Assembly: GCA_020053475.1 (NCBI GenBank) | Contig: JAGVNC010000028.1 | Coordinates: 551-64,550 of the forward strand | Source: Candidatus Omnitrophota bacterium | Lineage (GTDB): Bacteria > Omnitrophota > Gorgyraeia > Zapsychrales > Zapsychraceae | Length of the DNA stretch: 64,000 nucleotides | Reading direction: 5' to 3' | In this document: piece by piece, positions 34,212 to 63,758 of the stretch | Numbering within the stretch: the first letter of the stretch is position 1 | Layout: each line of letters starts with the position of its first letter | Program-made: the position numbers and the translations under genes | The notes under the pieces: generated by a model | Database searches by the model: none | Seen by the model: the letters and a program-made list of their open reading frames with translations, nothing else | Told to the model about the DNA's origin: nothing

Positions 34212-34227
34212 TGTTTCACGTGAAACG
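34212..34227. promoter_or_regulatory. parS centromere site TGTTTCACGTGAAACG.
   Basis: 15/16 match to the canonical parS palindrome, upstream of parAB. Confidence 0.85.
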
Positions 34228-34248
34228 TTCATTTATCCAAGATTGGCA

Positions 34249-34264
34249 TGTTTCACGTGAAACA
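34249..34264. promoter_or_regulatory. parS centromere site TGTTTCACGTGAAACA, a perfect consensus.
   Basis: Perfect match to the canonical 16-nt parS, 37 nt from the first site. Confidence 0.9.
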
Positions 34265-34302
34265 TTACCGATAATTCTATTTTCTATGAATTCAGAGAAA
34301 AA

Positions 34303-34509
34303 TCAAGAAAATTGTTGTTTTTCTTTAATGGAGACTTTTATTTTGGCGGGCTTGGCACCCTCCATCCCGAAAAGGCCCTTCTTTTCTTCGCAGACGATCT
34401 TGACGACAATATCATCCCGGGTGACATTAAGAAGCTTAACCGCTTTCTCAATGGCCTCTTCTACGTCACCCCCTTCAACCTCTATGCTTTTGGACACTTT
34501 TTTTCTCAT
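34303..34509 (-). CDS. Jag/KhpB N-terminal-domain-only protein, 68 aa, with no KH or R3H domains.
   Basis: MRKKVSKSIEVEGGDVEEAIEKAVKLLNVTRDDIVVKIVCEEKKGLFGMEGAKPAKIKVSI resembles the Jag_N domain. It occupies the jag position downstream of yidC. Confidence 0.5.
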   Translation of the reverse strand: MRKKVSKSIEVEGGDVEEAIEKAVKLLNVTRDDIVVKIVCEEKKGLFGMEGAKPAKIKVSIKEKQQFS

Positions 34510-36125
34510 GCGATAACCGGTTGATTCTTGTACATCCGATATTGGGTAATCGTGGAAAAAATATAAAACATCGTAAAATATAGCGTCAATCCGCTCGCAA
34601 ATTTATAGAAAATGAACCCCATCATAATAGGCATCATGATCATCATCATTTTTTGCTGAGAAACCTGGGCCGCATCAGTCATTACCATGTTTTTGCTGGA
34701 AATCTTCTGCTGATAGAACATAATAAAAGCCATTAAAAGCGGCAGCAAATTGAGCTCATTGCCTATAATAGGTAAACTGTGCGGAAAAACAAACAAGCGA
34801 TCAGGCTCAGATAAGTCTTTGATCCACAAGAACTTAGCATTTTTAAAGGCTACTGATCGCCATAAAACCTGATAAAGTCCAATAAAAATTGGCATTTGAA
34901 ATAGAAACGGAAGGCATCCTCCAAAAGGGTTGATTTTCTCTCTTTTGTAAATCTCCATCATCTCTTGATTCATTTTTTGGGGATTATTCTTATATTTTTC
35001 CTTTAAACTCGCGATTTTAGGCTGGATGCCCTGAATTTTCTTCATGGATAACATCCCGCGGATCGTCAACGGGTATGTCACCAAATAAATAAGGCTGCTA
35101 ATGAGAATAATGACGATTCCCCAATTGGGGATAAATTTATAGAAGGCATGCATCGCAGAATAAATGATCTTGGCAATCCCATCAAACAAGCCAAAACGGT
35201 AAAACATCTGGATTTTTTCAAATCCTTCTTTGTATTTGCGCAAAAGCCTGATCTCTTCGGGGCCCGTATAAATAAGGCTATCAAAAACAGCCGTCCCTGC
35301 GCTTTCAATATTCTCGTCGGGAGAATGAATCGACACCTTTAGGTGGTGTTCATCCAAGGCATTGATTTTGTAACCAAATGTCTCGTAGCGCGGCTTGATG
35401 ATTGTGCAGAAATATTTATTTCGAAAACCGACCCATTCAATCGCTTCATTGGCTTCTTTATTTTCCTTATCGGAAAATTTAAAAGCGTTGTTCTTCCTTA
35501 TAGTTGAATTTTTAGCGAAGACAACGTATTCATTGAGAGGTTTATCAGTATCCCGTGTTTTGGGATTGTTTTGATTGGACATATCCAATTCATAACCAAT
35601 TGTCGAGCCATTAATCAGTTTGGACATTTCTGACTTATTAATGATCTTGGTCTTTGTTTGGATTATAAATTCTCCTTGGACAATTTCATAAATTCTTTCT
35701 ATTTTAATATCACTTGATTCCCATTCATATTTGATAAAGTTTTCTCTTAACTCACTTGCATTATAAATATTTGAATCAAAGCTCAGCAAATAGTTAATGC
35801 TTGTTAAAGGAAAAGAGACCCGATATTCCTTTAAGCGAATATTTTTAATCGTCCCTCCAATATTAGAAAATTCAACGATCAGCTTGTCCGATTCCAAAGT
35901 ACTTATTTGTTCATTGTCTATTGGCTTAAGCACAACTGTATTTTGCTCAACCGGGAAAGAAGGAGGGCGAGAGGAAGGACTGGTCGCCGTTGAATCCGCA
36001 ACTTGTTTATTATCAACAACTTGTGTTGTTTCTTTTAGCGGGCGCCTAGGCGGAGGGAATAAAACAGACCACGCAAACAAAACAAGAAAAGATAAGACAA
36101 CGGGAATGATTAATCGTTTTTCCAT
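34506..36125 (-). CDS. yidC: Membrane protein insertase YidC, 539 aa.
   Basis: N-terminal TM helix, a periplasmic domain and the conserved C-terminal 5-TM YidC/Oxa1 core. Confidence 0.9.
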   Translation of the reverse strand: MEKRLIIPVVLSFLVLFAWSVLFPPPRRPLKETTQVVDNKQVADSTATSPSSRPPSFPVEQNTVVLKPIDNEQISTLESDKLIVEFSNIGGTIKNIRLKEYRVSFPLTSINYLLSFDSNIYNASELRENFIKYEWESSDIKIERIYEIVQGEFIIQTKTKIINKSEMSKLINGSTIGYELDMSNQNNPKTRDTDKPLNEYVVFAKNSTIRKNNAFKFSDKENKEANEAIEWVGFRNKYFCTIIKPRYETFGYKINALDEHHLKVSIHSPDENIESAGTAVFDSLIYTGPEEIRLLRKYKEGFEKIQMFYRFGLFDGIAKIIYSAMHAFYKFIPNWGIVIILISSLIYLVTYPLTIRGMLSMKKIQGIQPKIASLKEKYKNNPQKMNQEMMEIYKREKINPFGGCLPFLFQMPIFIGLYQVLWRSVAFKNAKFLWIKDLSEPDRLFVFPHSLPIIGNELNLLPLLMAFIMFYQQKISSKNMVMTDAAQVSQQKMMMIMMPIMMGFIFYKFASGLTLYFTMFYIFSTITQYRMYKNQPVIA

Positions 36126-36127
36126 AG

Positions 36128-36334
36128 TTAAACCGGATCGTAACCACCCTTAAAAAGGGGGTTGCATTTCAATATTCGCAAAAAGGCCTTCGTTAAGCCA
36201 CGGCCTAGGCCATATTTACTCACAGCATCGAGGGCGTATTGGGAGCAGGAAGGGGTAAATCGACAAGCTGGAGGGAACAGCTGGCGACTAACGCATTGAT
36301 ATCCTTTGACAAGCGCCCGAAAGATAACGGCCAT
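36128..36334 (-). CDS. yidD: Membrane protein insertion efficiency factor YidD, 68 aa.
   Basis: Cys-rich small protein [11 protein letters not shown] typical of YidD. Confidence 0.85.
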
Positions 36335-36361
36335 GGATTAGTTCTCCCGCTGATGCTTGGC

Positions 36362-36496
36362 TTAAGCGACTCGCTTGCGGCCCTTGGCGCGTCTTCGGTT
36401 CAACGTTTTTCGTCCGCTTTTACTGCGCATCCTCTTACGAAAACCGTGTCGTCTTTTTCCCTTAATATTTGTTCGCGCTTTTAAATGCTTTTTCAT
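36362..36496 (-). CDS. rpmH: 50S ribosomal protein L34, 44 aa. It is below the ORF-track length cutoff.
   Basis: Minus-strand translation MKKHLKARTNIKGKRRHGFRKRMRSKSGRKTLNRRRAKGRKRVA matches the L34 family. Confidence 0.85.
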   Translation of the reverse strand: MKKHLKARTNIKGKRRHGFRKRMRSKSGRKTLNRRRAKGRKRVA

Positions 36497-36991
36497 AGTT
36501 GGACAATTATAACATAGAGCTTTAGGGAGTCAAGGTCTTTCCTTTTTTAGAGGCTCAAAACGTTTGTAAATACAAATAGTTACGGCAATTTTGGAATCAT
36601 CATCCTTCCGACGAGAATCATGGTTGAGTGCCCTTCGGCGCGTTTTGGAAGAAAGAATCTGTCCTTCAATCACTTGCCATCCCGGGGCCGAGGAAAAATT
36701 AATTTGAAATAAAAATTTTCTTTGTTATAATAAAACAACTTTCTGGGATGATCATTCTTTTGTCGCGTAAAATATTGCAAACTTTCCGGATCAATAGAAA
36801 TTTTGCTGTCAACCAAAACATTTTGTGCGCCCTTAAGCGATTGTGAGTCTAAAAAGTTTTGGGCATCGGTTTTGTTTTAGGGTAATTCAGGCTATTCACC
36901 CCTGTGGATAACCTGTGAAAATCTTTTTTAAAAGACTGCAAGGCTATATTTATCAAATATTTACGCTATTAGAATATTTGCATTGCTTTGA
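36497..36991. other. oriC: Candidate oriC region upstream of dnaA. It has a perfect DnaA box TGTGGATAA at 36904-36912, degenerate boxes, and AT-rich stretches around 36695-36745.
   Basis: Consensus 9-mer, the rpmH-dnaA intergenic position, and the flip of gene-strand bias exactly here. Confidence 0.6.
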
Positions 36992-38344
36992 TTGAATGAG
37001 TTCATTATGAGTTTATCCAACGTTTGGAAAAAAGCCCAAGACATGATCAAAGAGAAGGTAGGGACAACCTCTTATGATACATGGTTCTCGACGCTGCAAG
37101 TGAAGGAACAATCCCCGCAAACTCTGGTGATCGAAACCCCGGATGAATTTTTTAAAAGTTGGATTGTCGAACATTATCAACCCTTTATTGATGAAACCAT
37201 CCATTCTTTGCACGAAGGCCCTATTAAGATTGAATATACGGTGAACACCGATTTAATCGAAAAAACCACTCAATCCCGCTTATCGAAATTTGAGCAAACA
37301 TTCGTTGAAGACAAATCGCCGAAAGCGGTATTAAATGCCCGCTTTACGTTTGAAAATTTTGTCATTGGGCCGTCTAATCGATTTGCGTGCGCCGCAGGAT
37401 TAGCCGTCGCCGAGGCCCCGGCCAAAGCATATAACCCTTTCTTTGTGTATGGCCAAGTTGGGTTAGGGAAAACCCATCTGATTCAAGCAATTACCCATAA
37501 AATCCGCCAGCTTAACCCCAGCGCAAAAATTTGTTATATTACCTCGGAGCGGTTCACGAACGAGCTGATTGAGGCGATTCGCCATCAATCCACGCCGAAC
37601 TTTCGGAAAAAATATCGGGAAATTGACGTTTTGCTCATTGATGACATTCATTTTATTGCCGGCAAAGAATCGACCCAGGAAGAATTCTTCCACACGTTTA
37701 ACGCGTTGCATGATAATCGAAAACAAATCATTATTACATCCGATCGGCCGCCCAAAGAAATCACCAACTTAGAAGAACGGCTGCGTTCACGCTTTGCCTG
37801 GGGACTGATTGCCGATGTTCAGCCTCCGGACTTTGAAACGCGCGTGGCAATCTTGCGTAAAAAAATCGAAAAAGAACCCATCCATGTTCCCGACGACGTT
37901 ATTTATTTTATTGCCGAACAGGTGCCCACCAATATTCGTGAACTAGAGGGGGCGTTGATTCGTGTGGCCGCTTATTCATTGTTGGAAGACAAGGTGATTT
38001 CGCTGGAGATGACCAAAGTCGTTCTCAAAGACATGGTGAAGGAGGCCACGAAAATTATTAGTATGGAGATGATCCAAAAATCCGTAGCCAACCATTACCA
38101 GATTTCATTGGCTGAGTTACGCGCCAAACGTCGAAATAAGAACATTGTTTTCCCCCGGCAAATGGCAATGTATTTAGCGCGCCAATTAACGAAAATGTCG
38201 TTACCGGAGATTGGGAACTCTTTTGGCGGGAAAGATCACACAACGGTCTTACATGCCTGTAAAAAGATTGAGCAAGAAATGTTGAAAAGTACCGACATTA
38301 AACACACGATCCTTGAGTTAACTTTAGTTATTAAGAACCCTTAG
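36992..38344 (+). CDS. dnaA: Chromosomal replication initiator DnaA, 450 aa. It may instead start at the Met at 37007.
   Basis: AAA+ Walker A GQVGLGKTHL and the C-terminal DnaA-box-binding domain. Confidence 0.95.
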   Translation: MNEFIMSLSNVWKKAQDMIKEKVGTTSYDTWFSTLQVKEQSPQTLVIETPDEFFKSWIVEHYQPFIDETIHSLHEGPIKIEYTVNTDLIEKTTQSRLSKFEQTFVEDKSPKAVLNARFTFENFVIGPSNRFACAAGLAVAEAPAKAYNPFFVYGQVGLGKTHLIQAITHKIRQLNPSAKICYITSERFTNELIEAIRHQSTPNFRKKYREIDVLLIDDIHFIAGKESTQEEFFHTFNALHDNRKQIIITSDRPPKEITNLEERLRSRFAWGLIADVQPPDFETRVAILRKKIEKEPIHVPDDVIYFIAEQVPTNIRELEGALIRVAAYSLLEDKVISLEMTKVVLKDMVKEATKIISMEMIQKSVANHYQISLAELRAKRRNKNIVFPRQMAMYLARQLTKMSLPEIGNSFGGKDHTTVLHACKKIEQEMLKSTDIKHTILELTLVIKNP

Positions 38345-38494
38345 TCTAGATATCCAAAGGCATTGAACAATTAAAAAGGTTGTAAGTTATTAGAAAAAAA
38401 TATTTTATATTTTTATTAGATTTATCCACAGGCCCTATTACTAAGGCTACTAATTGTTCTTATTAAAATATATAAGTAGGAGGTTGTTAATAAT
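38345..38494. other. AT-rich dnaA-dnaN intergenic region with a perfect DnaA box TTATCCACA at 38422-38430, a candidate DNA-unwinding element and second origin module.
   Basis: Read directly. The 150-nt segment is very AT-rich. Confidence 0.5.
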
Positions 38495-39583
38495 ATGAAA
38501 ATTAAGTGTTCTAAGGATGTTTTAATGCAGGGAGTTCAGGCTGTCCAAAACGTTGTTTCGCCAAAAATTACATTACCTATTCTCTCTAATATTCTTTTAG
38601 AAACAAAAAAGAATACATTGTATTTAACGGCGACCGACTTAGATATTGGGATCTCTTGTGAAATTCCTGTGGAAGTAATTCTGGATGGGGCGATTACGGT
38701 TCCCGCCAAGCGATTTAGCGATATTATTAAGGAGCTGCCTTCCGGAGATGTGGTGGTCCATGCGAAGAAAAATTATCAGGTGGATATTGAAGGCAATAAT
38801 TTTCGATTTAAATTAATCGGGATGCCTAAAGACGAGTTTCCTAAATTCCCCGAGTTTAAAGAAAAAGACATTATTTCTATTGAGCAAAAAACATTAAAGG
38901 AAATGTTGCGGTTAACAAGTTTTGCCGTATCCCACGAGGAATCACGCTATGTCCTCAATGGTGTTCTTTTAGAGGTAGCGGAAAATAAAATCCGCCTCGT
39001 GGCGACCGATGGGAGACGGTTGGCTAAAATTGAAAGAGTCCTTTCTCATCCAACATCCAAAGAGATCACGGTCATCATCCCCATTAAAGCCATTCAGGAA
39101 ATCAATCGTAATTTGAAAGACGAAGGCAATGTGATATTAAGTGTGGGGCTAAATCAAGTGTTGTTTGATGTTGGAGGGATTCTGATTGCCACGCGCATTA
39201 TTGAAGGGGAATTCCCTAATTATCAACAAGTCATCCCAAAATCGCAAGCGGAGAAAATCGTCATGAACCGCCAGGATTTTTTGTCATCGATCCGCCGGGC
39301 GAACCTATTGTCCACGCCGGATTTCCAGGCGGTTAAATTCGAAGTATTTAATAATAAAATGGTGATTTCCAAAACAACACCCGAGGTCGGGGAGTCGCGA
39401 GAAGAGATCCCCATCGAATACGGAGGCTCAGAGCTGGTGGTGGGGTTTAATCCGCATTTTATGATCGATGTGTTAAAAAATATCGAAGAAGAGCAAATTC
39501 ATTTGGAGCTATTGGGGACCGATAAGCCGGGCATCATCCGCCTCAAAGATTATTTATATCTGGCCTTGCCGATGCGTATTTAA
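38495..39583 (+). CDS. dnaN: DNA polymerase III beta sliding clamp, 362 aa.
   Basis: Three-domain beta-clamp sequence with RBS AGGAGG. Confidence 0.9.
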   Translation: MKIKCSKDVLMQGVQAVQNVVSPKITLPILSNILLETKKNTLYLTATDLDIGISCEIPVEVILDGAITVPAKRFSDIIKELPSGDVVVHAKKNYQVDIEGNNFRFKLIGMPKDEFPKFPEFKEKDIISIEQKTLKEMLRLTSFAVSHEESRYVLNGVLLEVAENKIRLVATDGRRLAKIERVLSHPTSKEITVIIPIKAIQEINRNLKDEGNVILSVGLNQVLFDVGGILIATRIIEGEFPNYQQVIPKSQAEKIVMNRQDFLSSIRRANLLSTPDFQAVKFEVFNNKMVISKTTPEVGESREEIPIEYGGSELVVGFNPHFMIDVLKNIEEEQIHLELLGTDKPGIIRLKDYLYLALPMRI

Positions 39584-39602
39584 CCTCAAATGTTGCATTG
39601 CA

Positions 39603-42463
<2,861 letters not shown>

Positions 42464-42580
42464 TGAAGCCCAGAGTTATGGAACGAGCAAAGCGAGTGAA
42501 CATAACTCTGTTGGCTGAATTAACCCCCAGCGTTTTGATTCGCATAGCGAATCAGCAGGGGGTCACTTAATGAAATATCG

Positions 42581-45031
42581 ATGCGTGATTTAACAGCCAA
42601 AGAAAAAATCATTCCTGTTTATATCGAAGAAGAAATGAAGAATTCCTATCTTTCTTATTCGATGAGTGTTATCGTCGGCCGCGCCCTCCCGGATGTGCGT
42701 GACGGCGTTAAGCCCGTGCATCGGCGCATTTTATATGCCATGAAGGAGTTGAACCTCGAGTACCCTAAAACATATAAAAAATGCGCCCGTATCGTCGGGG
42801 AAGTGTTGGGGAAATATCACCCTCACGGGGATGTGGCCGTGTACGATACGCTCGTTCGTCTCGTTCAGGACTTTTCGATGCGCTATCCATTGGTCGACGG
42901 GCAAGGAAACTTCGGGTCGATCGATGGGGACGCCGCCGCGGCCATGCGCTATACAGAGGCCCGGTTAGCGGCCATTTCTAGTGAAATGCTCGCCGATATC
43001 GATAAGGAAACCGTCAATTTTGTCCCCAATTTTGATTCGACGTTAGAAGAACCGAGCATTTTGCCGGCTGTTTTACCTAACCTTCTGGTCAATGGATCCA
43101 GCGGGATTGCCGTCGGGATGGCGACCAACATGCCGCCGCATAATTTAGGCGAAGTGGCGGACGCGATCGTTCAGTCCATCGACAATCCGGAAATGACGAT
43201 TAAAGATTTAAACAAAATCATCAAAGGCCCTGACTTTCCCACGGGCGGGATCATCTGTGGAAAAGAAGGGATCGTCGAGGCGTATACGACAGGGCGCGGG
43301 AAATTGACGGTGCGCGCGAAGGCGGCCATCGAGCGGCAGAAGGGCAATAAAGACAGCATCATCGTCACGGAAATTCCTTATCAAGTCAATAAGGCGAACT
43401 TGATTGAAGCCATCGCCGGGCTGGTCCAAGAGAAGAAGGTCGAGGGGATCACGGACATTCGCGACGAGTCCGACAAAGATGGGATCCGCGTGGTGATTGA
43501 ACTTCGCCGGGATGTTGAGGCCCAGATCATCCTTAATTATTTATATAAACACACTCAGCTGGAAATGACATTCGGCATCATTAATTTAGCTTTAGTCAAT
43601 AACAGCCCCAAGATCCTGAATCTTAAGCAACTCATTGAGCTTTATATTGATCATCGCCGGCTGGTGATCCGTCGGCGGACACAGTTTGATTTGGACCGTG
43701 CCCTCAAACGCGCCCACATTTTAGAAGGCTTGCGCATCGCGATTGATCATATCAACCAAATTATCAAAACGATCCGGAGCTCCAAGAGCGCGCCGCAAGC
43801 CAAAGTCGCGTTAATGAAAGAATTTGGCCTTTCCGAAATCCAAGCGCAAGCGATTCTGGAAATGCAACTCCAGCGATTGACAGGGTTGGAACGCGACAAA
43901 ATCGAAGAAGAATATCAACAGCTCCTGAAAGACATTGAGGAATTCCGCGCGATTTTAGCTTCCGAGAAACGAATTGAAGGGATTATCAAAGATGAATTGA
44001 CGGAAATCAAGAAGAAATATGCCGACGAGCGCCGGACGGAAATTGCCGGAAAAGCCGAAGAGATTGAAGTCGAGGACTTGATCGCCGAAGAAGATATGGC
44101 CATCACCATCAGCAACGCCGGGTATATCAAGCGTTTGGCGGTGAGCGCGTATCGCAAGCAAAAGCGCGGCGGGAAAGGCATCACGGCGATGGAAACCCGT
44201 GAAGAAGATTTTGTCACGCAGGTGTTTGTGGCGTCTTCCAAAGATTATTTGCTTGTTTTTTCAACCGAGGGGATTGTTCGTTGGCTGAAGGTTTACGAAA
44301 TCCCCGTCGCGTCGCGCACGTCCAAAGGAAAAAATATCGCCAGCCTTTTATCGATGGCGAACGACGAGCAAATCAGTTCGATTGTCGCTGTTAAAGAATT
44401 TTCAGACAACACATATATCGTCATGGCAACCTCTCAGGGCCTCGCGAAGAAAACAAAATTGTCCGCATTCAGTAATCCCCGGAAAGCCGGGATCGTTGGG
44501 ATCACCTTGGAAAAGAATGACCGCCTCATCGGGACCGCTCTTAGTAATGGCAAATATGATGTCTTTTTAGCGACGAAGGCTGGTAAATCATTGCGTTTTT
44601 CCGAGAAGAATATTCGGGACATGGGCCGTGGGGCCAAAGGCGTGCGTGGGATCAAGTTAGGCAAAGGCGATGAGGTCGTTAGCATGCAGGCTTTTTCTCC
44701 GGATATTGATAAAACGGGGAGCACGTTATTAGCTGTTACTTCATTAGGGTTTGCCAAACGTTCATCATTTAATGAATATCGGACACAATCGCGCGGCGGC
44801 AAAGGGATCATCAATGTGAAGGTCACGGAACGCAACGGCCATGTCGTCGGAGTGCTTTCGGTTATGCCTGATGATGAAGTCATGACAGTCACCAAACAAG
44901 GAATGATCGTGCGCTGTCCTCCCAGTGATGTCCGTCAAACCGGACGAAGCGCTGTCGGCGTGCGCTTGATTTCCCTCGACAAAGGCGATACGGTAAGCTC
45001 GGTGGCCAATGTTGTGGCCAAAGACGAATAA
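42581..45031 (+). CDS. gyrA: DNA gyrase subunit A, 816 aa.
   Basis: Active-site region [10 protein letters not shown] and a C-terminal beta-pinwheel. Confidence 0.95.
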
Positions 45032-53677: not shown

Positions 53678-54505
53678 ATGAATTTAGAGAATAAAAAACA
53701 AATCGCGACATTGTTGTTAGCGGTGGCACTTGGATTAGCCGCGGCTGTATTTACCAGCGATTATGTGACAAAGAGCATTAATAAACAAACGACCGCGTTG
53801 GCCAAAAATTATGACAAAAAGACGGAAGAGATCAAGAAAGAACTGGCCCTGACACAGAAGGCGTTGGATCAGTTGGCCAAAAATCAAAAAGTCTTGGCCG
53901 ACAGGCCTGCCCAGGTTGCCGCGGGAGGGCCGGAAAGGCAAATGACACCAGCGGGTGTCCTCTCCGCGCGAACACCTCCGGGGAAAAGAGCATTGACCAT
54001 TAATGTCGACACCCTTTCCGCCGTTGGAGGATTATTAAATCCCGGAGACCGCGTCGATATTATCGCTGATTTACAAATTCCCGATTCCCGTGATCCCAAA
54101 GCGGAACCGGATAAAGTCACATCCGTCTTGTTTCAAGATGTCCTTGTCCTTGCCGTAGGAACGAATTTTCAGCCGGTGACAACGGCCGAAGGGTATGATG
54201 CGCGTGCAAAAGCACGTTCGTTACAGATCACCCTGGCCCTAGACCCGGAAGAGGCTTCTTTAATCACGTTTTCCCAGAAATATGGCAAAATGCAACTAAC
54301 GTTGCGCCCACCGTCGGATGAGGGCGTGCAAAATATGGAAGTGGCTTCCTGGGATTCATTGGCCGATTTTGTCTTGGAAAGGCAAGGAACGGAGCTGATT
54401 GTCCCTAGGTCAAAGGCAAGAATTCAAACAGATGATACAGGGAAAAAAGAAACCAAAGACACAGAAGCCTTTATTCAAATTTTTAAGGGAGGCAAAGAGC
54501 AATAA
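53678..54505 (+). CDS. cpaB: Flp pilus assembly protein CpaB/RcpC (SAF domain), 275 aa.
   Basis: N-terminal TM helix and the SAF-like LTINVDTLSAVGGLLNPGDRVDIIADL. Confidence 0.75.
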   Translation: MNLENKKQIATLLLAVALGLAAAVFTSDYVTKSINKQTTALAKNYDKKTEEIKKELALTQKALDQLAKNQKVLADRPAQVAAGGPERQMTPAGVLSARTPPGKRALTINVDTLSAVGGLLNPGDRVDIIADLQIPDSRDPKAEPDKVTSVLFQDVLVLAVGTNFQPVTTAEGYDARAKARSLQITLALDPEEASLITFSQKYGKMQLTLRPPSDEGVQNMEVASWDSLADFVLERQGTELIVPRSKARIQTDDTGKKETKDTEAFIQIFKGGKEQ

Positions 54506-54508: not shown

Positions 54509-56332
54509 ATGGAAACTAAACGAGCGTTTAAAACATTGGCTTTACTGAAGATGAGCGTTGTGATGGGCGCATTTTTCCTTTTGGGTTTATCCGCACCGGC
54601 CCAGGCTCGCGTTGATGCCACAACGAACGAAGTCAACCTTCTTATCGGGGAATTAGAAACCATCGACGTTAAATCATTAACGCGCCTTTCGATTACGGAC
54701 CCCAAAGTGGTTGACATTGTTGAGGCCAAAGAAAGCGAGATTCTGATTATTGCCAAAGCCATCGGGCAAAGCGCTTTATTTGTTTGGGATGAAAACGGGA
54801 AACGCACTGTTCTCGTTAACGTGGCGGCCCAAAACTTAGGATTAATCTCGCAGCGGCTTGAAAAACTTTTTTCCTCGGTCCATATCGACAATGTTACCGT
54901 TGAAGTTAATGGGAAAGAGGGAAAAGTTGTCTTGACCGGTCAAATTTTCGAAGATAAAAAAGATCAGTTTGATCAGGTCATTGCCCCCTTCAATCGAGAC
55001 ATCATTAATCTCGTCAAGGTAGAAAAATCCGAAGATTTAATTGAGGTGGATATCCAGATTACGGAATTAACGACAACCTTGACGAAAGCCATCGGCATCG
55101 ACTGGGCATCTTCCAGCACGGGGCCCTCGATCTCTGGGTTGGGCGCCGGCGGCCTTTTGGCGCCAACATTTTCTGAAAATGTGCCCAGCGTTGATGGATC
55201 AGTGGAAGATCTTTTTAAGATTGGGAATTTTCAACGCACGTATCAGTTGATTGCCATGATTAACGCCTTATTAGAAGAAGGGAAGGCGCGGATCCTCTCT
55301 AAACCGAAGCTTGTTGTCGTCAGCGGAGAAGAAGCCAGTTTTAATGTCGGAGGAGAAATTCCGATCCGTACGACAACCACATCACAAGGTTCTACCCAAG
55401 AAAATGTGACATTTAAGAAATTTGGGATAGGGATGACGATTACGCCTACAATTAAAAAAGGGAAAATTGATTTATTGATGGAAGTTGAAGTTAGCGATAT
55501 TGATTCTGCCAACAAGGTCGGGGACAATGTGGCCTTTACGACACGCAATGCCCAAACAAGATTATATTTAGACAACGGCCAGCCCATCGTCATTGCAGGA
55601 TTGATAAAGAAGCGCGAGTCGGAATTGGTCAAAAAAGTTCCATTTTTAGGAGAAATTCCTATCATTGGGATTTTGTTTAGAAGCAAGTCGACTCCGTCAG
55701 CCAATGAAGACCAGGAACTAGTTATTTCTCTGACGCCGTTAATCCTCAATTCAGAATATAATTCTGCGATGATATCGAAAATTACTCCCCCATTGGAAGT
55801 AGCCGATGAGCCTCAAAAAGAACCAATGGACGATGATGATGTGGTTGCGGATGATGCTGATGATGCTGATGATGTGGATGCCGATGCGGATTTGGATGTG
55901 GATGAAACTGAAGAACCGTTGAGTTGGGATGACGAAACAATGCAAATGGATCCTAGTCCTGCGGTGGCGGCAAATGAAAGTCAATCTTCTACACAAATTA
56001 CTCCTGAAGAAAAATCTTCAGAGAATGATGGCTTTCCTGCGGGGATGAAAGATTATATTCAGGCGATTCAACAGCAGATTTCTAGCACGATCCAATATCC
56101 TCCCGAAGCGGAAGAATATGGTTGGGAGGGAACTGTCAGGCTAGGATTGCTCATCTTACACGACGGGACATTAGCGCTTGCTTCCATCAAGGAGTCCTCA
56201 GGGCATAAAATTTTTGACGAATACGCTCTTAATACGGCCAAAGAATTGGCCCCTTATTTAAGTTTCCCTCCTGAAACAGACCTGCAGGAATTAAATGTTA
56301 CGATTCCCATTGTGTATACCGTGGCCCGATAA
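54509..56332 (+). CDS. cpaC: Tad-type secretin (CpaC/RcpA family), 607 aa, with a polyacidic linker and a C-terminal TonB_C-like domain.
   Basis: Signal peptide and a secretin core (ARILSKPKLVVVSGEEASFNVGGEIPI...LTPLILNS). The acidic run DDDDVVADDADDADDVDADADLDVDETEE is followed by YPPEAEEYGWEGTVRLGLLILHDGTL...SSGHKIFDEYALNTAKE, which matches the TonB C-terminal consensus. Confidence 0.75.
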   Translation: METKRAFKTLALLKMSVVMGAFFLLGLSAPAQARVDATTNEVNLLIGELETIDVKSLTRLSITDPKVVDIVEAKESEILIIAKAIGQSALFVWDENGKRTVLVNVAAQNLGLISQRLEKLFSSVHIDNVTVEVNGKEGKVVLTGQIFEDKKDQFDQVIAPFNRDIINLVKVEKSEDLIEVDIQITELTTTLTKAIGIDWASSSTGPSISGLGAGGLLAPTFSENVPSVDGSVEDLFKIGNFQRTYQLIAMINALLEEGKARILSKPKLVVVSGEEASFNVGGEIPIRTTTTSQGSTQENVTFKKFGIGMTITPTIKKGKIDLLMEVEVSDIDSANKVGDNVAFTTRNAQTRLYLDNGQPIVIAGLIKKRESELVKKVPFLGEIPIIGILFRSKSTPSANEDQELVISLTPLILNSEYNSAMISKITPPLEVADEPQKEPMDDDDVVADDADDADDVDADADLDVDETEEPLSWDDETMQMDPSPAVAANESQSSTQITPEEKSSENDGFPAGMKDYIQAIQQQISSTIQYPPEAEEYGWEGTVRLGLLILHDGTLALASIKESSGHKIFDEYALNTAKELAPYLSFPPETDLQELNVTIPIVYTVAR

Positions 56333-56444: not shown

Positions 56445-58607
56445 ATGCAGGCAAAAACGATAACAATTTTTAGCAATAAAGGCGGTGTCGGCAAAACATT
56501 TGTCACCGTCAATACCGGCACAGCCATGGCCGTGGCTAACCACAAAGTCTTGATTTTAGATTTTGACTTTCAGGCAGGTCAAGATATGGCGCGGATGTTG
56601 AACATCGCCCCCAAACATGCCTTGGTCGATATTTTCCCCGTCTTGGAATCTTCCGATGATCCGCAGTTGATCTACAAATACGTTTCCGTTCATTCCAGCG
56701 GCGTGCATTTTTTGCCAGCCGTAAAAAATACCCGGCAGATCGGGCATATCACGCCCGACAACATCAAGCCTTTCTTAAAGAAAATAGCCTCCGCTTATGA
56801 TTTTATTCTTATTGACGCGGGAAAATCTTTTAGTGAAACGTTGATAACGGTTTTGGATTATTCCAACCTGATCCTGTTGGTCGCGACGCCGGATATTTTG
56901 GCGGTTTATAACATTAAGTGGTGTTTAGACGTTTTGCAGAGCCTGCAGTTTCCTAACAAAATGGTTAAGCTCGTATTAAACCGTTCCGAAAGCCGCGGGA
57001 GCGTGGCTTGGCAAGAGGTCCGGTCAGCGTTGCCTTGTGAAATTCTGACTCATATCCCTTCCGACGGAAAAACAGTCGGGATGGCTTTAAACCGGGGAAT
57101 TCCTTGCGTGGTCGATGCGCCTAAAAGCCGTGTGGCTGAATCGTTCTTTCGCCTGGCTTCACTTTTCGAAAAAGATGATATGTTTGTTGCGGCGACGGAG
57201 GTTGAGAAACAAAGGACAACGGATGAATTTGCCAAACCCGGGGCTTTTTGGGAAAAATTCGGCATCACCCAAGCCATGGGAATGTCGTTGCCGGGGATTT
57301 CTTTTGCCACGGAAGAAGATGAGGTCATCGTGTTAAAAAGGAAAATTCACGAGAAGCTCGTCAAGCGGCTCAATTTAGACGGGATTACGCCCGAAGCGTT
57401 AAACGATCCGATTGCCGCCCAAGGGATCAAGAGAAATGCCGAAGAGGTCGTGGCCAATATGTTGACGGAAGAGGCGGGCGGGATGCTGGCCGCGCACGAG
57501 GAACGCGTTCGGCTGGTCAAGGATATTGTCAATGAAGCGTTAGGCCTCGGCCCGCTGGAAGATTTTTTGGCGGATCCGGACGTGACCGATATTATGGTCA
57601 ACAGCCGTGATCAGATTTATGTGGAAAAAAGCGGCAAACTTATTTTGACGAATAAAAAATTTATTTCTGATGAAAAAATGCGGTCCGTCATTGAGCGTAT
57701 CATTGCGCCCTTGGGCCGTCGCATCGATGAATCGACACCCATGGTGGATGCGCGCCTTCCTGACGGATCCCGGATCAATGCCATTATCCCCCCTTTGTCC
57801 TTAAATGGCCCGATGATTACCATTCGTAAATTCGGCCAGGAACGTTTGACCGCTGAAGATCTTCAGCACCGATTTCATTCGCTCAATCAAGCCATGCGCG
57901 ATTTTTTGCAAGCTTGTGTTTTAGGCAGAAAGAACATCATTGTTTCCGGTGGAACCGGCGCCGGGAAAACGACATTATTGAATGTCATTTCGGAATTTAT
58001 TCCAGACAACGAACGGTTGATTACCATTGAGGACGCCGCCGAATTGAAGCTGAAAAAAAGCCATTGGGCGAGATTAGAGTCGCGCCCGTCGAACATCGAG
58101 GGCCGCGGACAGGTCACGATCCGCGATTTGTTTATTAACAGTTTGCGGATGCGCCCGGACAGGATTGTCATCGGCGAATGCCGCGGGGCGGAGGTGTTGG
58201 ACATGCTTCAGGCCATGAACACGGGCCACGACGGATCATTAACAACGCTGCACGCCAACTCCACCAAGGACGTTTTAGTCCGGATGCATTCGATGATCCT
58301 GTTAAGCGGGATTGAATTGCCTGTGCGCGCCATCAATGAAATGGTGGCCTCGGCCATTGATATCATTGTCCATGTCGCTCGGTTTTCTGACGGAACCCGG
58401 AAAATAACGGGAATTTCTGAAGTGACGGGGCTCAGTAAAGATTTTCAGTGCGAGCTTGAGGACGTTTTTGTTTTCAAGCAAACAGGCCTCGACAGCGATG
58501 GCAAAATTTTGGGGAGTTATCAGCCGACAGGATATATTCCCATTTGCTATGAAGATTTCGCGACGCGCGGATTACCGATCGATCGAAGTATTTTCTTGAA
58601 GGCTTAA
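56445..58607 (+). CDS. Fused TadZ/CpaE-like ParA-family ATPase (N-terminal) and TadA/CpaF secretion ATPase (C-terminal), 720 aa.
   Basis: N-terminal deviant Walker A FSNKGGVGKTFVTVN. C-terminal GGTGAGKTTLLN plus T2SSE-family motifs (His box TLHANS). Confidence 0.75.
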   Translation: MQAKTITIFSNKGGVGKTFVTVNTGTAMAVANHKVLILDFDFQAGQDMARMLNIAPKHALVDIFPVLESSDDPQLIYKYVSVHSSGVHFLPAVKNTRQIGHITPDNIKPFLKKIASAYDFILIDAGKSFSETLITVLDYSNLILLVATPDILAVYNIKWCLDVLQSLQFPNKMVKLVLNRSESRGSVAWQEVRSALPCEILTHIPSDGKTVGMALNRGIPCVVDAPKSRVAESFFRLASLFEKDDMFVAATEVEKQRTTDEFAKPGAFWEKFGITQAMGMSLPGISFATEEDEVIVLKRKIHEKLVKRLNLDGITPEALNDPIAAQGIKRNAEEVVANMLTEEAGGMLAAHEERVRLVKDIVNEALGLGPLEDFLADPDVTDIMVNSRDQIYVEKSGKLILTNKKFISDEKMRSVIERIIAPLGRRIDESTPMVDARLPDGSRINAIIPPLSLNGPMITIRKFGQERLTAEDLQHRFHSLNQAMRDFLQACVLGRKNIIVSGGTGAGKTTLLNVISEFIPDNERLITIEDAAELKLKKSHWARLESRPSNIEGRGQVTIRDLFINSLRMRPDRIVIGECRGAEVLDMLQAMNTGHDGSLTTLHANSTKDVLVRMHSMILLSGIELPVRAINEMVASAIDIIVHVARFSDGTRKITGISEVTGLSKDFQCELEDVFVFKQTGLDSDGKILGSYQPTGYIPICYEDFATRGLPIDRSIFLKA

Positions 58608-59041: not shown

Positions 59042-60898
59042 ATGGGTGTTGTTTATAAACTAAAAGACGAAGTTCTTCAATTCATTATCCAGCAAAAAAA
59101 GGACATCCCTTCCTTGGGCGTGCGCCAATTGGCCGGCCTTGTCAGCACCAAATTCCACCTTCAAGTTTCGAAATCTTCCGTTAGCAATGTTTTAAAAGGC
59201 GCTCATTTAAGCAGCGGGGTGGGAAGAAGGGCCACGCAAGACCGGAAACAAAAAAAATTTAAAATCCCGACGCAGAAGAAGAAAGAGATTTCGGAGCACA
59301 TGCAAAAAATGGCCCTGGGCCGGGAGCCGGTGCTTTCCAAGGCCACGATCAGCGAAAAACCCGTTGAACACATGGCGCCCTCAGCTGAACCTGTCGAAGA
59401 GGTTCTGGCGAATGAGGATGAAAGCGAGATTTTGGAGAAAGAAATTCTTGTTGTCCCGCCAGTCCCGTCGGAGAAATCCCCAGGAATTGAAGCGGCCGAT
59501 CCCTTGAGGGAAGTTTCTTCTCTCCCGCCAACGCAATCTTCCAAAGATGTTTTTTATCAGCATGTTCGGGAGATTCAAGCGCGGCGCGTCGCGCAACAGG
59601 GGAAGCTTTATCAAGGGCTGGGATGTATTTTTCTAAAAGCCGCAGAATGGGAAGGGAATCAACACCCTTGGGATCAATTATTCGCTCAAGAATCAGGAGC
59701 GCTTTCGGATAATTTTTCGGGTACATTTTCCGCCCTCGCGATCGAAGCGTTTTTAACCAAAGAAGGGGCGAGCCGTAAGGACATGTTCAAAGAAGGAATT
59801 TTTGTCCTTAATGATTTAGACCCTGCAGCGCCACAGGCACAACATCGTTTTGATCAAATCGCCGGACTTGTCATCCCTGAGCCTGTTGTTTGGGAATACA
59901 CTGACCATCTTCAACAATTTTTTGCTCAAGCAGACCTGTTTCGTTGGGAATTAGAAGATGCAACGGAATTTTATACCGATCCAGGAGCGACTTTTTTAGA
60001 TGAGCAGGTTTCTTCGGGCGGGCTCGCCTTTCCTTTAAACAAGGCCTTGACGATTTTGTCCCGAGAGATCATTAGCAATAATCATCCGCTGATTTTATGC
60101 CAAGCCCCCGGCCAGCAGGCCATTGACGCGTGTTTCGATGATTTTTTAGGCGCGTTCGAAGGCCACTCGAATAAATCCATTGTTGCGCTCACCGTGCTCA
60201 ATGAGCACCAAGAAGAAGTCGCGATGTTTAACATCATTCCTCGTCGACGCCGAAATTTTATTTGCGGGCTGTGGCCGCACCTGAAGGAATTTAAAGAATT
60301 AACAAAGACCGTCAAGTGGGCCGCGAAACAACCCTTTTATGTTGAGCATGCGGATCGAATTGTCTATTCTGCCGCCACCCAAACAGATTATTTTGCGTCA
60401 CATTTATCGGAGAACCCCCGGCCCATGCGCTTGTTAACGCTTTGGAACGATGAACAAGCAGAGCCCTGCATGAGCATTCTGTGTAATGACATGGACATCG
60501 AGCCGCAAAAAATCCTGGATTTATATACAACGCGATGGCCTTATCTGGAAAGGCCTGCCTTGTTTAAAGAGGCTGGGGAGCCGCTACCTTTGATCCAAAA
60601 TGCGGATCAACATCATTCATTAGAATCGTTGGCGGGAAAATTTGGGGACATCCTCCACCAATACTGTTTAAGAAAGTTCTTTCCTTCATATCGGCGCTTA
60701 CCTTCGGCATCCTTAATTGAAAATATTTATGAAATGCCGGGATATGTGATCAAAACCCCTCAATCTTATCAAATTTTGTTAAAAACAAAGGGGAATGCGG
60801 AAAATCGCTTAGAAGAGCTTAAGGATGCTGTTCAGCGGCTAAATGAACACGGCATTGAGACAGGGGACGGGAAGAAGGTTTCAATCCTTATAATATAA
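59042..60898 (+). CDS. Large hypothetical protein, 618 aa. It has an N-terminal HTH-like segment, a Pro/Glu/Lys-rich linker and a C-terminal region containing the motif YTTRWPYLERP. An upstream TGcTATACT extended -10 lies inside the palindrome GGACATT-N24-AATGTCC.
   Basis: Read directly. No confident family was assigned. Confidence 0.45.
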   Translation: MGVVYKLKDEVLQFIIQQKKDIPSLGVRQLAGLVSTKFHLQVSKSSVSNVLKGAHLSSGVGRRATQDRKQKKFKIPTQKKKEISEHMQKMALGREPVLSKATISEKPVEHMAPSAEPVEEVLANEDESEILEKEILVVPPVPSEKSPGIEAADPLREVSSLPPTQSSKDVFYQHVREIQARRVAQQGKLYQGLGCIFLKAAEWEGNQHPWDQLFAQESGALSDNFSGTFSALAIEAFLTKEGASRKDMFKEGIFVLNDLDPAAPQAQHRFDQIAGLVIPEPVVWEYTDHLQQFFAQADLFRWELEDATEFYTDPGATFLDEQVSSGGLAFPLNKALTILSREIISNNHPLILCQAPGQQAIDACFDDFLGAFEGHSNKSIVALTVLNEHQEEVAMFNIIPRRRRNFICGLWPHLKEFKELTKTVKWAAKQPFYVEHADRIVYSAATQTDYFASHLSENPRPMRLLTLWNDEQAEPCMSILCNDMDIEPQKILDLYTTRWPYLERPALFKEAGEPLPLIQNADQHHSLESLAGKFGDILHQYCLRKFFPSYRRLPSASLIENIYEMPGYVIKTPQSYQILLKTKGNAENRLEELKDAVQRLNEHGIETGDGKKVSILII

Positions 60899-61256: not shown

Positions 61257-61427
61257 ATGAAAGGCTTTTTAAGAATAATGGACCATTTAGACCGCAAAGG
61301 TCAAAACTTGATCGAATATGCCTTCGTCGCCTCTATCGTGATCGCTGCTGTTTTTGTCATGAGTACTTATGTGTTTCGTTCTGTCCAATCCACGCAACAG
61401 ATGATTCAAAAAGAAGCAATCAAGTAA
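61257..61427 (+). CDS. flp: Flp-family prepilin, 56 aa (leader MKGFLRIMDHLDRKG, then QNLIEY).
   Basis: G/XXXXEY processing motif followed by a 20-aa hydrophobic segment. Confidence 0.75.
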   Translation: MKGFLRIMDHLDRKGQNLIEYAFVASIVIAAVFVMSTYVFRSVQSTQQMIQKEAIK

Positions 61428-61511
61428 ACCCTTTAAAGAAATTCTTTAAACGGGGGACTCTTTGTCGTTAGAGCATCAACAAAAGAGAGAATATCTTCAA
61501 GGAGGAATCTA

Positions 61512-61742
61512 ATGTTAAGACGTAACATAAAAACGCCCGCGCTAAAGAAAAAGAAGGGGCAATCGACGCTGGAATATATCATCCTTGTAGCTGGCGTCAT
61601 TGCTGTGTTGATTGTTTTCTTGGCGCCCGGCGGTATTTTCCAGACATCGTTTAATTCGATCCTGTCATCTGGGACGCAAGGCGGAGTGCAGCTGGCGAAC
61701 GCGTTAAAGCTTTCGCACGGGGGCAACGCCGATGCATTTTAA
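61512..61742 (+). CDS. Flp-type prepilin paralog, 76 aa.
   Basis: KKKKG-QSTLEY motif plus a hydrophobic segment. RBS AAGGAGG. Confidence 0.7.
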   Translation: MLRRNIKTPALKKKKGQSTLEYIILVAGVIAVLIVFLAPGGIFQTSFNSILSSGTQGGVQLANALKLSHGGNADAF

Positions 61743-61762
61743 CATTGTGGAGGGAAAAACAA

Positions 61763-62122
61763 ATGTTTAGAAAATTGTTAAAAAATAAAAAAGCGCAAAA
61801 TACCCTCGAGTATGCGATCCTGATCTCTTTGGTCGTCGCGGGGATTGTTGCCATGCAAACGTATGCCCAACGAGCCTTGCAAGCGAGAGTTCGTGACGCG
61901 AGCTCGTATTTGGCGAATCAAACCGGAGCCTTAGGGAATACGCTTCAGTATGAACCTTATTATCTAAGTACCAACTACGCAATCGAGCGGGACGAATCAG
62001 AAACCCAAATACTGGATAACGTCACAACCTTACAACAGGTGAATTCTACTCGTAAACGAGCTGCGGGTGGGTTCCAGAGTTCTGATTACAGTACGGCATT
62101 CGGTATTGTCAATGGCATCTAA
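61763..62122 (+). CDS. Flp-type prepilin paralog with an extended C-terminal domain, about 119 aa. ATG start after RBS GGAGGG. The ORF track starts at TTG 61745.
   Basis: KNKKA-QNTLEY motif. The C-terminal region is paralogous to the 62656 gene (shared YEPYY). Confidence 0.65.
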   Translation: MFRKLLKNKKAQNTLEYAILISLVVAGIVAMQTYAQRALQARVRDASSYLANQTGALGNTLQYEPYYLSTNYAIERDESETQILDNVTTLQQVNSTRKRAAGGFQSSDYSTAFGIVNGI

Positions 62123-62188
62123 GGAAAAGCAAGCCAAGCAGCTTGTTTTCCTAACATTGAGCCATTTTAAATTGAGGAGGATCATTCA

Positions 62189-62518
62189 ATGTTGAGGCTT
62201 TTGAATAAACGAAGAAAAAAAGGGCAAAGTACGCTGGAATATGCCATTCTGATTATTATCATCCTCGGTGCGCTGATGTCCATCCAGATATATATCAAAC
62301 GCGGGATTCAAGGAAGACTGAAAAGCGCGACAGATGATATCGGGGACCAGTTCTCTCCGGGGAATACCAATGTAGTGAAAATTATGCACACCGTCAGTAA
62401 TTCTGTCGATACGTTTGCGTTCGGTAAATCCAAATCCACATTAACAGGTAAGGGGGAAATAACGACCGAACAAATGAATTCTGACATCATGATTGTTAAT
62501 CAGGAATTCTGGCAATAA
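62189..62518 (+). CDS. Flp-type prepilin paralog with an extended C-terminal domain, 109 aa.
   Basis: RRKKG-QSTLEY motif. Paralogous to the 63437 gene (shared YIKRGIQGRLK...GDQFSP). RBS GAGGAGG. Confidence 0.7.
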   Translation: MLRLLNKRRKKGQSTLEYAILIIIILGALMSIQIYIKRGIQGRLKSATDDIGDQFSPGNTNVVKIMHTVSNSVDTFAFGKSKSTLTGKGEITTEQMNSDIMIVNQEFWQ

Positions 62519-62655
62519 GCCCGGCTTTTGATGACAAGATATGGCTTGCTTGGGAGAGAGGTTCTTTTCGGGCAGGCCATATTTTTTTAGCGGGCTCGCA
62601 TTCGCAAGAACGTTAGAACGTTATCATGAGAATGCGGGTTTAATCTTTCTTCATT

Positions 62656-63036
62656 ATGTTAAAGCTTCTAACAAATAGACGCGCTCAGGCTATGATGGGC
62701 GAATATGTCCTTGTTTTTGTGATTGTTTTAAGCGTCATGGGGGCGATGACGGTTTATTTCAAACGCGCCATCCAGGCCCGCATGTACGACGCCCGTAACG
62801 CAATGGTCGGGACCGTCTATGAACGGACGAACGAGATCAATTATGTGGGGGAAATCGGGGTCGCGTACGAGCCTTATTACACCAACACCACGTCATCTGT
62901 GCAGAGGACATCAGAATCAGAAACAAGGTTGAAGCCTGGGCTGACGACGGGGATTTTTAGTAAAACAATTAACGAAACGACAGCTGTTCAGACAGAAAGC
63001 ACGACCGCTCCGCCTAAAGATGTGGACTTGTTTTAA
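62656..63036 (+). CDS. Flp-type prepilin-like paralog, 126 aa, with the variant motif RRAQAMMGEY.
   Basis: Hydrophobic segment after the GEY motif, and a Thr/Ser-rich C-terminus. Confidence 0.55.
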   Translation: MLKLLTNRRAQAMMGEYVLVFVIVLSVMGAMTVYFKRAIQARMYDARNAMVGTVYERTNEINYVGEIGVAYEPYYTNTTSSVQRTSESETRLKPGLTTGIFSKTINETTAVQTESTTAPPKDVDLF

Positions 63037-63037
63037 T

Positions 63038-63391
63038 ATGTTGAGAAAAAGATCATTTCGCCATCAGAGGAAGACACAAAACGCCCAATCCATGCTTGAA
63101 TATGTCATTGTCATTGGCGTTATCGTCACGGTTCTGTTCACGATGAACCCTTTGCTGAAGCGCAGCATCCAAGGGCTTATTAAATTCGTCGCGGACCAAG
63201 TTGGTAATCAAGAGAACGCGGAACAAGATTTCGATGAGATGGGGCATTTACAATCTCAACATGTCAAAACGCAGGCGGACATTCATCGGACAGAAATTGA
63301 TTTTTTGCGCGTGATGAATTATATTTCCGATGAAGTGGTTGTTTCGGAAAGTAACACGCAGATTAATGCGGGATTTACTCAGACCGATTAA
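63038..63391 (+). CDS. Flp-type prepilin-like paralog, about 117 aa, with motif KTQNAQSMLEY. The start is uncertain; an alternative ATG lies at 63020.
   Basis: Motif plus a hydrophobic segment. Confidence 0.5.
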   Translation: MLRKRSFRHQRKTQNAQSMLEYVIVIGVIVTVLFTMNPLLKRSIQGLIKFVADQVGNQENAEQDFDEMGHLQSQHVKTQADIHRTEIDFLRVMNYISDEVVVSESNTQINAGFTQTD

Positions 63392-63436
63392 ATGGTTAAA
63401 ATTTGCTGTGGCATGGATGATAGGGAGACTTAGCAT

Positions 63437-63758
63437 GAAACTGATTGGCCGCAAAAAACGAAGAGGGCAAAGCGTCATCGAATACGTCATTCTGATCACT
63501 ATCTTATTGGGTGCTTTCTTGGCCATTGGAACTTATTTTAAGCGCGGCGTTCAGGGGCGCTGGAAAGAGGCTGTCGACGGATTCGGTGATCAATACGATC
63601 CCCGCGCTGCCGACACGAACATTAAACACAGCATTTTGTCAAATACCAATACGACGATTTTGGCGATGAATAGTGTCGGCGGCTTCTGGACATCGCGCAC
63701 TGATGAATCAAAAACGACTGAAAAAAGGACGGGATATATGTCGTCGGGAGCGTATTGA
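63437..63758 (+). CDS. Flp-type prepilin paralog, about 107 aa. Start MKLIGRKKRRG-QSVIEY with RBS GGGAG.
   Basis: G/XXXXEY motif. Paralogous to the 62189 gene. Confidence 0.65.

Follow-up and report, generated by a model that had tools for sequence, protein, structure and literature searches.

How is a tad locus to be read when the two cytoplasmic ATPases that are ordinarily encoded by adjoining genes, TadZ (CpaE) and TadA (CpaF), appear in it as a single protein? The question is raised by a stretch of 64,000 nucleotides from a Candidatus Omnitrophota bacterium (contig JAGVNC010000028.1; hereafter the window), in which positions 56445 to 58607 of the forward strand form one open reading frame (ORF) that runs from ATG to TAA, encodes 720 amino acids and contains no internal stop codon. 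A preliminary description of this DNA had read the ORF as a TadZ/CpaE-like ParA ATPase and a TadA/CpaF secretion ATPase in one polypeptide. Indeed, the 720-codon frame is uninterrupted and Pfam recovers two modules, with AAA_31/ParA/CbiA on residues 4-240 (E-values 4e-17 to 3e-12) and T2SSE on residues 366-646 (E 2.8e-59). The architecture is already known: 'TadZA' of Bdellovibrio bacteriovorus HD100, with TadZ and TadA regions joined by a flexible linker, was described in a preprint of July 2026 (bioRxiv 10.64898/2026.07.08.737194), and the window protein is a further example. We consider it likely that the ORF encodes a TadZA-type fusion that serves as cytoplasmic ATPase to the Flp/Tad pilus machine encoded around it. 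Its parts are the following.

56445..58607, forward strand: whole ORF, TadZA-type fusion ATPase; 720 amino acids, stop codon 58605-58607
56445..57179, forward strand: CpaE/TadZ-type ATPase module of MinD/ParA fold without a receiver-like domain, as classed by Pfam, predicted structure, fold and family profile; residues 1-245
56478..56498, forward strand: deviant Walker A KGGVGKT; residues 12-18, signature lysine K12, P-loop lysine K17
57180..57311, forward strand: flexible inter-module linker, in the place of the disordered NTD0 of CpaF; residues 246-289
57246..57266, forward strand: linker motif FWEKFGI; residues 268-274, short helix predicted at 267-271
57312..57542, forward strand: three-helix bundle resembling CpaF NTD1; residues 290-366, predicted helices 290-311, 322-344 and 351-366
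57543..58604, forward strand: CpaF NTD2 and C-terminal ATPase domain; residues 367-720, T2SSE E 2.8e-59
57948..57974, forward strand: motor Walker A GGTGAGKTT; residues 502-510, K508; further catalytic residues R437, R443, E533, E578, H595 and H603

Residues 290-720 constitute, to judge from sequence and model, a complete and apparently active CpaF/TadA motor. A secretion ATPase with Walker A GGTGAGKTT and Asp and His boxes had been placed at residues ~290-720 at the outset, and the motif is indeed found at 502-510, together with E533 and H595/H603. Among solved structures, residues ~333-700 matched Caulobacter crescentus CpaF (8rkd/9e24) at E 4e-112, as compared to ~1e-36 for archaeal GspE/FlaI and VirB11. 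Similarly, the top Foldseek match of the motor part was CpaF (8rjf), with a template modelling (TM) score of 0.85 on the target and 44% identity. Using an alignment with CpaF and the numbering of Hohl et al., residues R437, R443, K508, E533, E578 and H603 correspond to CpaF R217, R223, K287 (P-loop), E312 (Asp box), E357 (Walker B glutamate) and H382 (His box). The catalytic residues of the motor are all present, and none varies among 112 aligned fusions. The helical bundle that precedes them resembles NTD1, the three-helix domain defined in CpaF (Hohl et al.), and its residues K298, H302 and L305 are invariant in both Omnitrophota and Bdellovibrionales. The score against TIGR03819 (TadA, conjugal-transfer-associated) was 328.3 bits, under the cut-off of 373.15; as the model describes a different TadA subfamily, the shortfall does not speak against CpaF.

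The N-terminal module fits best among the ATPase domains of CpaE/TadZ type, because a family profile and a fold search both rank first 3EA0, the ATPase domain of a CpaE. The deviant Walker A KGGVGKT and the MinD/ParA fold that had been read from the letters were both recovered, at residues 12-18 and by Pfam at 4-240, respectively, and in an AlphaFold2 (AF2) model built on an alignment of 112 fusions the module reaches a predicted local distance difference test score (pLDDT) of ~88, the mean of the model being 82. Across 112 Omnitrophota and Bdellovibrionales fusions K12, D41 and D124 are invariant, while K17 and D39 are kept in at least 90%. The family profile, which was built from the N modules of 20 diverse fusions, matched 3EA0 best in the PDB (149 bits, E 1.6e-42), ahead of MinD (112 bits), FleN/FlhG (~95) and Eubacterium rectale TadZ 3fkq (44). 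When the predicted window structure was used for a fold search, 3EA0 was again the best ParA/MinD match, with a TM score of 0.89-0.90 and a root-mean-square deviation of 2.0-2.2 Å, followed by FleN (0.81) and FlhG (0.76). The PDB deposit of 3EA0 bears only the name 'ParA family ATPase'; by sequence search it comprises residues ~125-370 of a 382-residue Chlorobaculum tepidum protein for which the JGI name is pilus assembly protein CpaE, and in which ~125 residues stand ahead of the ATPase domain. The gene for this protein (L084 7001-8149) lies directly upstream of cpaF and overlaps its start, in a tad locus with the order Flp (three copies), RcpC, secretin, TadE, TadG-like, CpaE, CpaF, TadB, TadC and A24 peptidase. 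The N module of the window protein occupies the place of that upstream gene, tadZ, being fused in frame ahead of the CpaF part and downstream of the secretin. For fusion N modules in general, 3EA0 is a far closer structural reference than E. rectale TadZ 3FKQ.

The fusion is neither local nor rare. Among the 5.8 billion clustered proteins that were searched, more than 120 clusters, 716-737 residues in length, align with 100% of the query at 67-77% identity, and every cluster with a named organism among these close homologues, at up to ~75% identity, belongs to Candidatus Omnitrophota/Omnitrophica. When 1.84 billion representatives at 50% identity were searched with HMMER, ~77 of the best 150 matches had the MinD-like plus CpaF architecture, as called with purpose-built domain hidden Markov models, and many of the best 150 align in one stretch over residues ~1-718 at 38-52% identity. 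Named members include Bdellovibrionales/Pseudobdellovibrionaceae, Bacteriovoracia, Bdellovibrionota, Elusimicrobiota and Spirochaetota. With a Bdellovibrionales member as the query, more than 120 further full-length clusters were found, as well as 80 species-representative genomes of Bdellovibrionales/Oligoflexia. The window protein is 39% identical to that query (P0147) over 689 collinear residues, and 39-42% identical to 56 Bdellovibrionales fusion proteins. In the preprint the fusion is treated as a trait of B. bacteriovorus (bioRxiv 10.64898/2026.07.08.737194); by its homologues it is instead a large family that spans several phyla and no peculiarity of that species. The statement that tad loci encode these ATPases as two proteins therefore describes the canonical rule, as in C. 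tepidum, but not the many loci in which a fusion, already published as TadZA, takes their place. In the literature that we searched, neither the fusions of Omnitrophota nor the spread of the family over several phyla is reported, and in the principal genomics paper on Omnitrophota, which treats Tad complexes, the words 'fused' and 'fusion' do not occur (Seymour et al.). Annotation of the fusions is inconsistent, with the names MinD, CpaF, TadA and hypothetical all in use. On a neighbour-joining tree of the CpaF domains from 134 representatives, parsimony placed 20 changes between fused and unfused states, a count drawn from noisy labels, in which degenerate N modules were scored as unfused.

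CpaF is also extended in other ways. Tandem proteins carry two, three or four complete CpaF modules in one chain (P0044, P0074, P0084, P0121, P0122 and P0124), P0044 for example having 1156 residues and three Walker A motifs; such chains would give covalently linked motor subunits. Other CpaF proteins bear an N-terminal FHA or a C-terminal STAS domain (P0174, P0168, P0189, P0226, P0214, P0267 and P0238). Among the representatives tested, FHA-CpaF was seen in six and CpaF-STAS in one, and therefore both ends of CpaF repeatedly acquire extra domains.

Conservation extends into the segment between the modules. The stretch from nucleotide 57200 to 57350 (residues ~252-302) is in frame, and its linker motif and helix are kept in an alignment of 21 Omnitrophota homologues, in which R257, F268, W269, K271 and G273 are invariant and are followed by the conserved helix LKxKIHEKLVERLN. 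Four of these residues (F268, W269, K271 and G273) belong to the linker motif itself, and a loose FWEKFGI pattern is matched by 106 of 117 Omnitrophota proteins. Apart from this one motif the linker varies in both sequence and length. In the AF2 model segment 250-290 has a pLDDT of 34-54, between confident modules at 1-245 and 290-720, and the predicted TM score of the whole is 0.51, which indicates that the linker would be a flexible tether with no fixed orientation between the modules. It stands where CpaF has NTD0, its residues 1-79, which are disordered and, in Caulobacter, dispensable for the sole function assayed, pilus-dependent phage infection (Hohl et al.). The stand-alone CpaE proteins of Chlorobi end in S[IL]W[EQ]RLKIK in 105 of 115 cases, which resembles FWEKFGI. 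In TadZ/CpaE an amphipathic helix behind the ATPase domain is predicted to bind the inner membrane. The likeness faintly suggests that the fusion retained a C-terminal helix of TadZ, the shared pattern being only five residues long. In the Bdellovibrionales fusions the motif is a different one, GxLQ[KR]LK, and none of 126 matched the pattern of the window motif.

The neighbourhood of the fusion is that of a tad locus. Upstream, co-directional and separated by short gaps, lie genes for a SurA-like peptidyl-prolyl isomerase, RcpC/CpaB and a secretin; downstream are two genes shared among Omnitrophota and then a run of prepilins.

53678..54505, forward strand: RcpC/CpaB alignment protein; PF16976 E 7.6e-25, TIGR03177 CpaB 94.2 bits against a cut-off of 71
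54509..56332, forward strand: RcpA/CpaC-type secretin with C-terminal TonB_C; PF13629, PF00263, PF03544
58616..58960, forward strand: DUF192 protein, a syntenic downstream partner in Omnitrophota (L001, L003); PF02643 E 1.5e-17
59042..60898, forward strand: 618-residue protein without a family match; L001 and L003 have counterparts of 552 and 674 residues, without a Pfam match, in the corresponding place
61257..63758, forward strand: seven Flp/TadE-like prepilin ORFs with class III leaders; an eighth starts near 63890 and crosses the window end

The same gene order surrounds the fusion in two other Omnitrophota genomes (L001 and L003). Of the prepilin ORFs, one carries the PF04021 class III signal above the cut-off (E 9.4e-7) and a second falls below it (E 0.0071, 16.7 against 23.7 bits). 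Leaders of the G-xxx-EY type are visible in the translations (KGQSTLEY, KAQNTLEY and RGQSVIEY), and searches of the small ORFs with Pfam and NCBIfam gave nothing informative beyond the class III signals. In L001 the counterpart of the last prepilin ORF is a 432-residue pilin-like protein, followed by a 98-residue pseudopilin and then an ORF of more than 1300 residues. In the window secretin the TonB_C domain (E 2.4e-13), at residues 528-604, is preceded by a long acidic linker rich in D and E; the domain also occurs in the secretins of two other Omnitrophota loci and is missing from those of Bdellovibrionales, which have BON instead, and of C. tepidum. In all Omnitrophota loci inspected, the fusion is followed by a DUF192 protein and a family-less protein of ~550-670 residues. 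The 618-residue member in the window had no Pfam or NCBIfam match, and its N-terminus looks helix-turn-helix-like by eye. The two may be lineage-specific Tad components or regulators. The locus lies in what looks like the replication-origin region, ~17 kb from dnaA; parB, parA, yidC, dnaA, dnaN, gyrB and gyrA were read by eye from the translations at 32431-45031. Likewise, a gyrase A-type gene (Pfam DNA_topoisoIV, DNA_gyraseA_C) stands at the same upstream position in L001, and the Tad locus of V. archaeovorus lies near the chromosome start, at 12382-29832 (Seymour et al.).

Several observations weigh against this assignment and have to be set beside it. Concerning the machine, neither the 64-kb window nor the DNA less than 10 kb from the fusion in L001, L002 and L003 yielded a gene for TadB/TadC (T2SSF) or for an A24 prepilin peptidase. 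The T2SSF search covered all ORFs of at least 70 residues at E up to 10, and as a positive control it found TadB in six of six Bdellovibrionales loci, each time directly after the fusion. Because Omnitrophota genomes are reported to carry TadB/C, which group with Bdellovibrionales homologues (Seymour et al.), the platform proteins of the window genome are presumably encoded elsewhere, and Omnitrophota tad genes appear to be split between loci. A scan of JGI metagenome contigs to extend the locus toward tadB/C gave no exact match to the last 51 bases of the window. Concerning the linker, the Eisenberg hydrophobic moment of FWEKFGI is 0.10, in the 8th percentile within the protein, and because of this low value a role of the motif as a membrane anchor is only weakly supported. 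Orthology to the published HD100 TadZA was drawn through proteins of Bdellovibrionales metagenome-assembled genomes, HD100 not being among the 80 loci returned, and the Omnitrophota fusion itself is known here from sequence, locus context and predicted structure.

The remaining points of this kind concern the N module, and they bear on the strongest rival explanation, namely that CpaF independently recruited a MinD/FlhG-type ATPase, which would then be a generic ATP-dependent membrane switch and not the Tad positioning factor. With the window sequence alone, the leading PDB matches were archaeal MinD 1hyq (68 bits) and Aquifex MinD (59), with 3EA0 at 58 and E. rectale TadZ 3fkq not among the matches; similarly, the best NCBIfam models for this single sequence are those of archaeal and bacterial MinD. 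The JGI label for the window protein is MinD, and annotations from JGI and Tara are to MinD (K03609) and COG0455 rather than to CpaE. In place of the atypical Walker A of TadZ the module has canonical KGGVGKT with both lysines: the motif fits the TadZ consensus K/RGGxGxS/T, yet it retains the P-loop lysine and is to that extent MinD-like. The receiver-like (REC/ARD) domain of TadZ/CpaE is absent, as just 11 residues precede the Walker A and Pfam shows no extra N-terminal domain. Many other fusions, moreover, have hydrophobic-basic stretches after the domain that can be read as MinD-like (GFSLFGRKKS, SFFSRLVPKLRIR). Nevertheless, the CpaE ATPase domain is clearly first by both family profile and fold, and the scores of the MinD models fall well short of the curated thresholds (TIGR01969, 95 against 201.75; TIGR01968, 80 against 212.9). 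Elsewhere in the fusion family the atypical, TadZ-style Walker A does occur (KGGSGVT, KSGSGTT, RGGNGQS and REGMGQS). The position of the module is exactly that of tadZ in canonical loci, and its neighbours are tad genes, with no minC or minE nearby. An independent recruitment of MinD is, on balance, unlikely. The TadZ identity put forward in the preliminary description thus stands for the ATPase domain, by profile and by fold, and does not reach beyond it to the receiver-like domain or to the Walker A.

If the protein is a TadZA-type fusion, a mechanism can be outlined by analogy with its relatives, in which hexamer formation, dimerisation, membrane contact and a localisation role, the last shown for relatives, are all inferred. 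By homology to CpaF, a bidirectional motor, residues 290-720 would form a hexamer under the inner-membrane platform that drives both the insertion and the extraction of pilin. Each motor hexamer would then carry six TadZ modules in cis on tethers of ~45 residues. In models from Caulobacter cryo-electron tomography (cryo-ET) six CpaE dimers ring the CpaF hexamer, and a CpaE-CpaF contact is predicted; the six tethered modules would be half of this complement, and without the REC domains that are thought to bridge the dimers there. Because the signature lysine and the switch residues are intact (K12, K17, D39, D41 and D124, which serve nucleotide binding and the sandwich dimer), the N modules are predicted to pair in an ATP-dependent manner. 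If the modules pair and also attach to the membrane or a landmark protein, the motor would be brought to the RcpC-secretin complex or held there, and one polypeptide would deliver both positioning and powering. The obligate coupling of localisation and assembly that had been proposed from the fusion alone is no more than plausible here, and the authors of the Bdellovibrio preprint likewise voice it as a possibility (bioRxiv 10.64898/2026.07.08.737194).

A bolder version of this scheme, which we hold to be possible but doubtful, would make TadZA fusions a distinct Tad lineage, anciently shared or horizontally exchanged and typical of predatory and host-dependent bacteria. Having lost the receiver, such a lineage would replace the 12-subunit ring of free CpaE with six tethered modules. 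Three ATP-dependent dimers per hexamer could arise from these modules, which would serve as a built-in clutch between membrane or landmark binding and the engagement of the motor. Were this true, the fusion would represent a different machine architecture and go beyond a merger of genes.

A second rival explanation retains the clutch and drops the positioning: the N module would be a regulatory or autoinhibitory device that gates the motor ATPase or its engagement with the platform, without any spatial role, much as FHA or STAS domains might on other CpaF proteins. The N-terminus of CpaF, and once its C-terminus, does accrete unrelated signalling domains (FHA in six representatives, STAS in one); CpaE of Caulobacter shifts relative to CpaF between piliated and non-piliated states, as seen by cryo-ET; and in the ultra-small cells of Omnitrophota polar positioning may matter less. 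In B. bacteriovorus, however, the TadZ region with the linker is both required and enough for binding the polar hub RomR, and TadZA shuttles between the poles, favouring the invasive one, a localisation that RomR depletion disturbs (bioRxiv 10.64898/2026.07.08.737194). Regulatory and positioning roles are also not mutually exclusive. A purely regulatory N module seems to us highly improbable.

The last explanation, that adjacent tadZ and tadA genes were merged in a metagenome-assembled genome through loss of a stop codon or a frameshift from sequencing or assembly, draws on the adjoining genes of canonical loci (overlapping in C. tepidum, where a single error could merge them) and on the probable metagenomic origin of the window, whose 79.7-kb contig has NCBI and JGI as sources, but it is excluded because the same continuous protein recurs in more than 120 full-length Omnitrophota homologues (90%-identity clusters of 716-737 residues from NCBI, JGI, ENA and Logan assemblies) and the same architecture in 80 Bdellovibrionales/Oligoflexia species genomes, complete chromosomes among them, to which are added the invariant residues inside the linker and an immunoblot showing functional, full-length TadZA-msfGFP in B. 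bacteriovorus (bioRxiv 10.64898/2026.07.08.737194). Judged by these homologues, the fusion is a conserved gene and no local artefact of sequencing or assembly.

Attachment by predatory and host-dependent bacteria, among them the Omnitrophota, has been proposed as a function of Tad pili; this phylum is uncultivated and its cells are ultra-small (Seymour et al.). How TadZ/CpaE communicates with the motor is still a question, even in Caulobacter. A covalent fusion fixes both the stoichiometry and the proximity of the two ATPases and thereby offers a handle for structural work, one protein at a defined 1:1 ratio. The multi-phylum breadth of the family supports the earlier observation of Seymour et al. 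that the Tad components of Omnitrophota and Bdellovibrionales are related, and it gives the results on Bdellovibrio TadZA a wider bearing. The main value of the finding lies in this breadth and in a natural construct with TadZ and TadA at 1:1.

Bdellovibrio TadZA is one of the closest known systems: in both cases a TadZ region, a flexible linker and TadA make up a single polypeptide. The likeness extends to the loci: a core of RcpC, secretin and fusion is present in both the window and Bdellovibrionales, and the fusion proteins are collinear at the 39-42% identity given above. There are differences as well. TadB comes right after the fusion in the Bdellovibrionales loci (6 of 6), whereas the window and three other Omnitrophota loci are without it; the linker motif is GxLQ[KR]LK in the former and FWEKFGI in the window protein; and the secretin carries BON in Bdellovibrionales but TonB_C in Omnitrophota.

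CpaE and CpaF of C. crescentus and C. tepidum correspond to the two ATPase domains of the window protein, and the adjoining genes cpaE-cpaF stand in the matching order, but the proteins are separate. Their stoichiometry differs accordingly, with 12 CpaE per six CpaF modelled in Caulobacter as compared to a covalent 1:1 in the window fusion. The receiver-like domain of CpaE, which makes up the ~125 N-terminal residues in C. tepidum (P0403), is missing from the window protein, and the Walker A reads KGGDGGS in the CpaE structure 3EA0 but canonical KGGVGKT in the window. Where CpaF begins with its disordered NTD0, the window fusion has the TadZ module and linker. MinD, FlhG and FleN share with the N module the fold, the deviant Walker A with its signature lysine and the switch aspartates; the window protein, in contrast, has no min or flagellar context, is fused to a pilus motor and is structurally nearer to the CpaE domain. 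Finally, FHA-CpaF and multi-CpaF proteins likewise extend CpaF within one chain, but what they add is a phosphopeptide-binding FHA domain or further copies of CpaF, and not, as in the window fusion, an ATPase of the ParA/MinD type.

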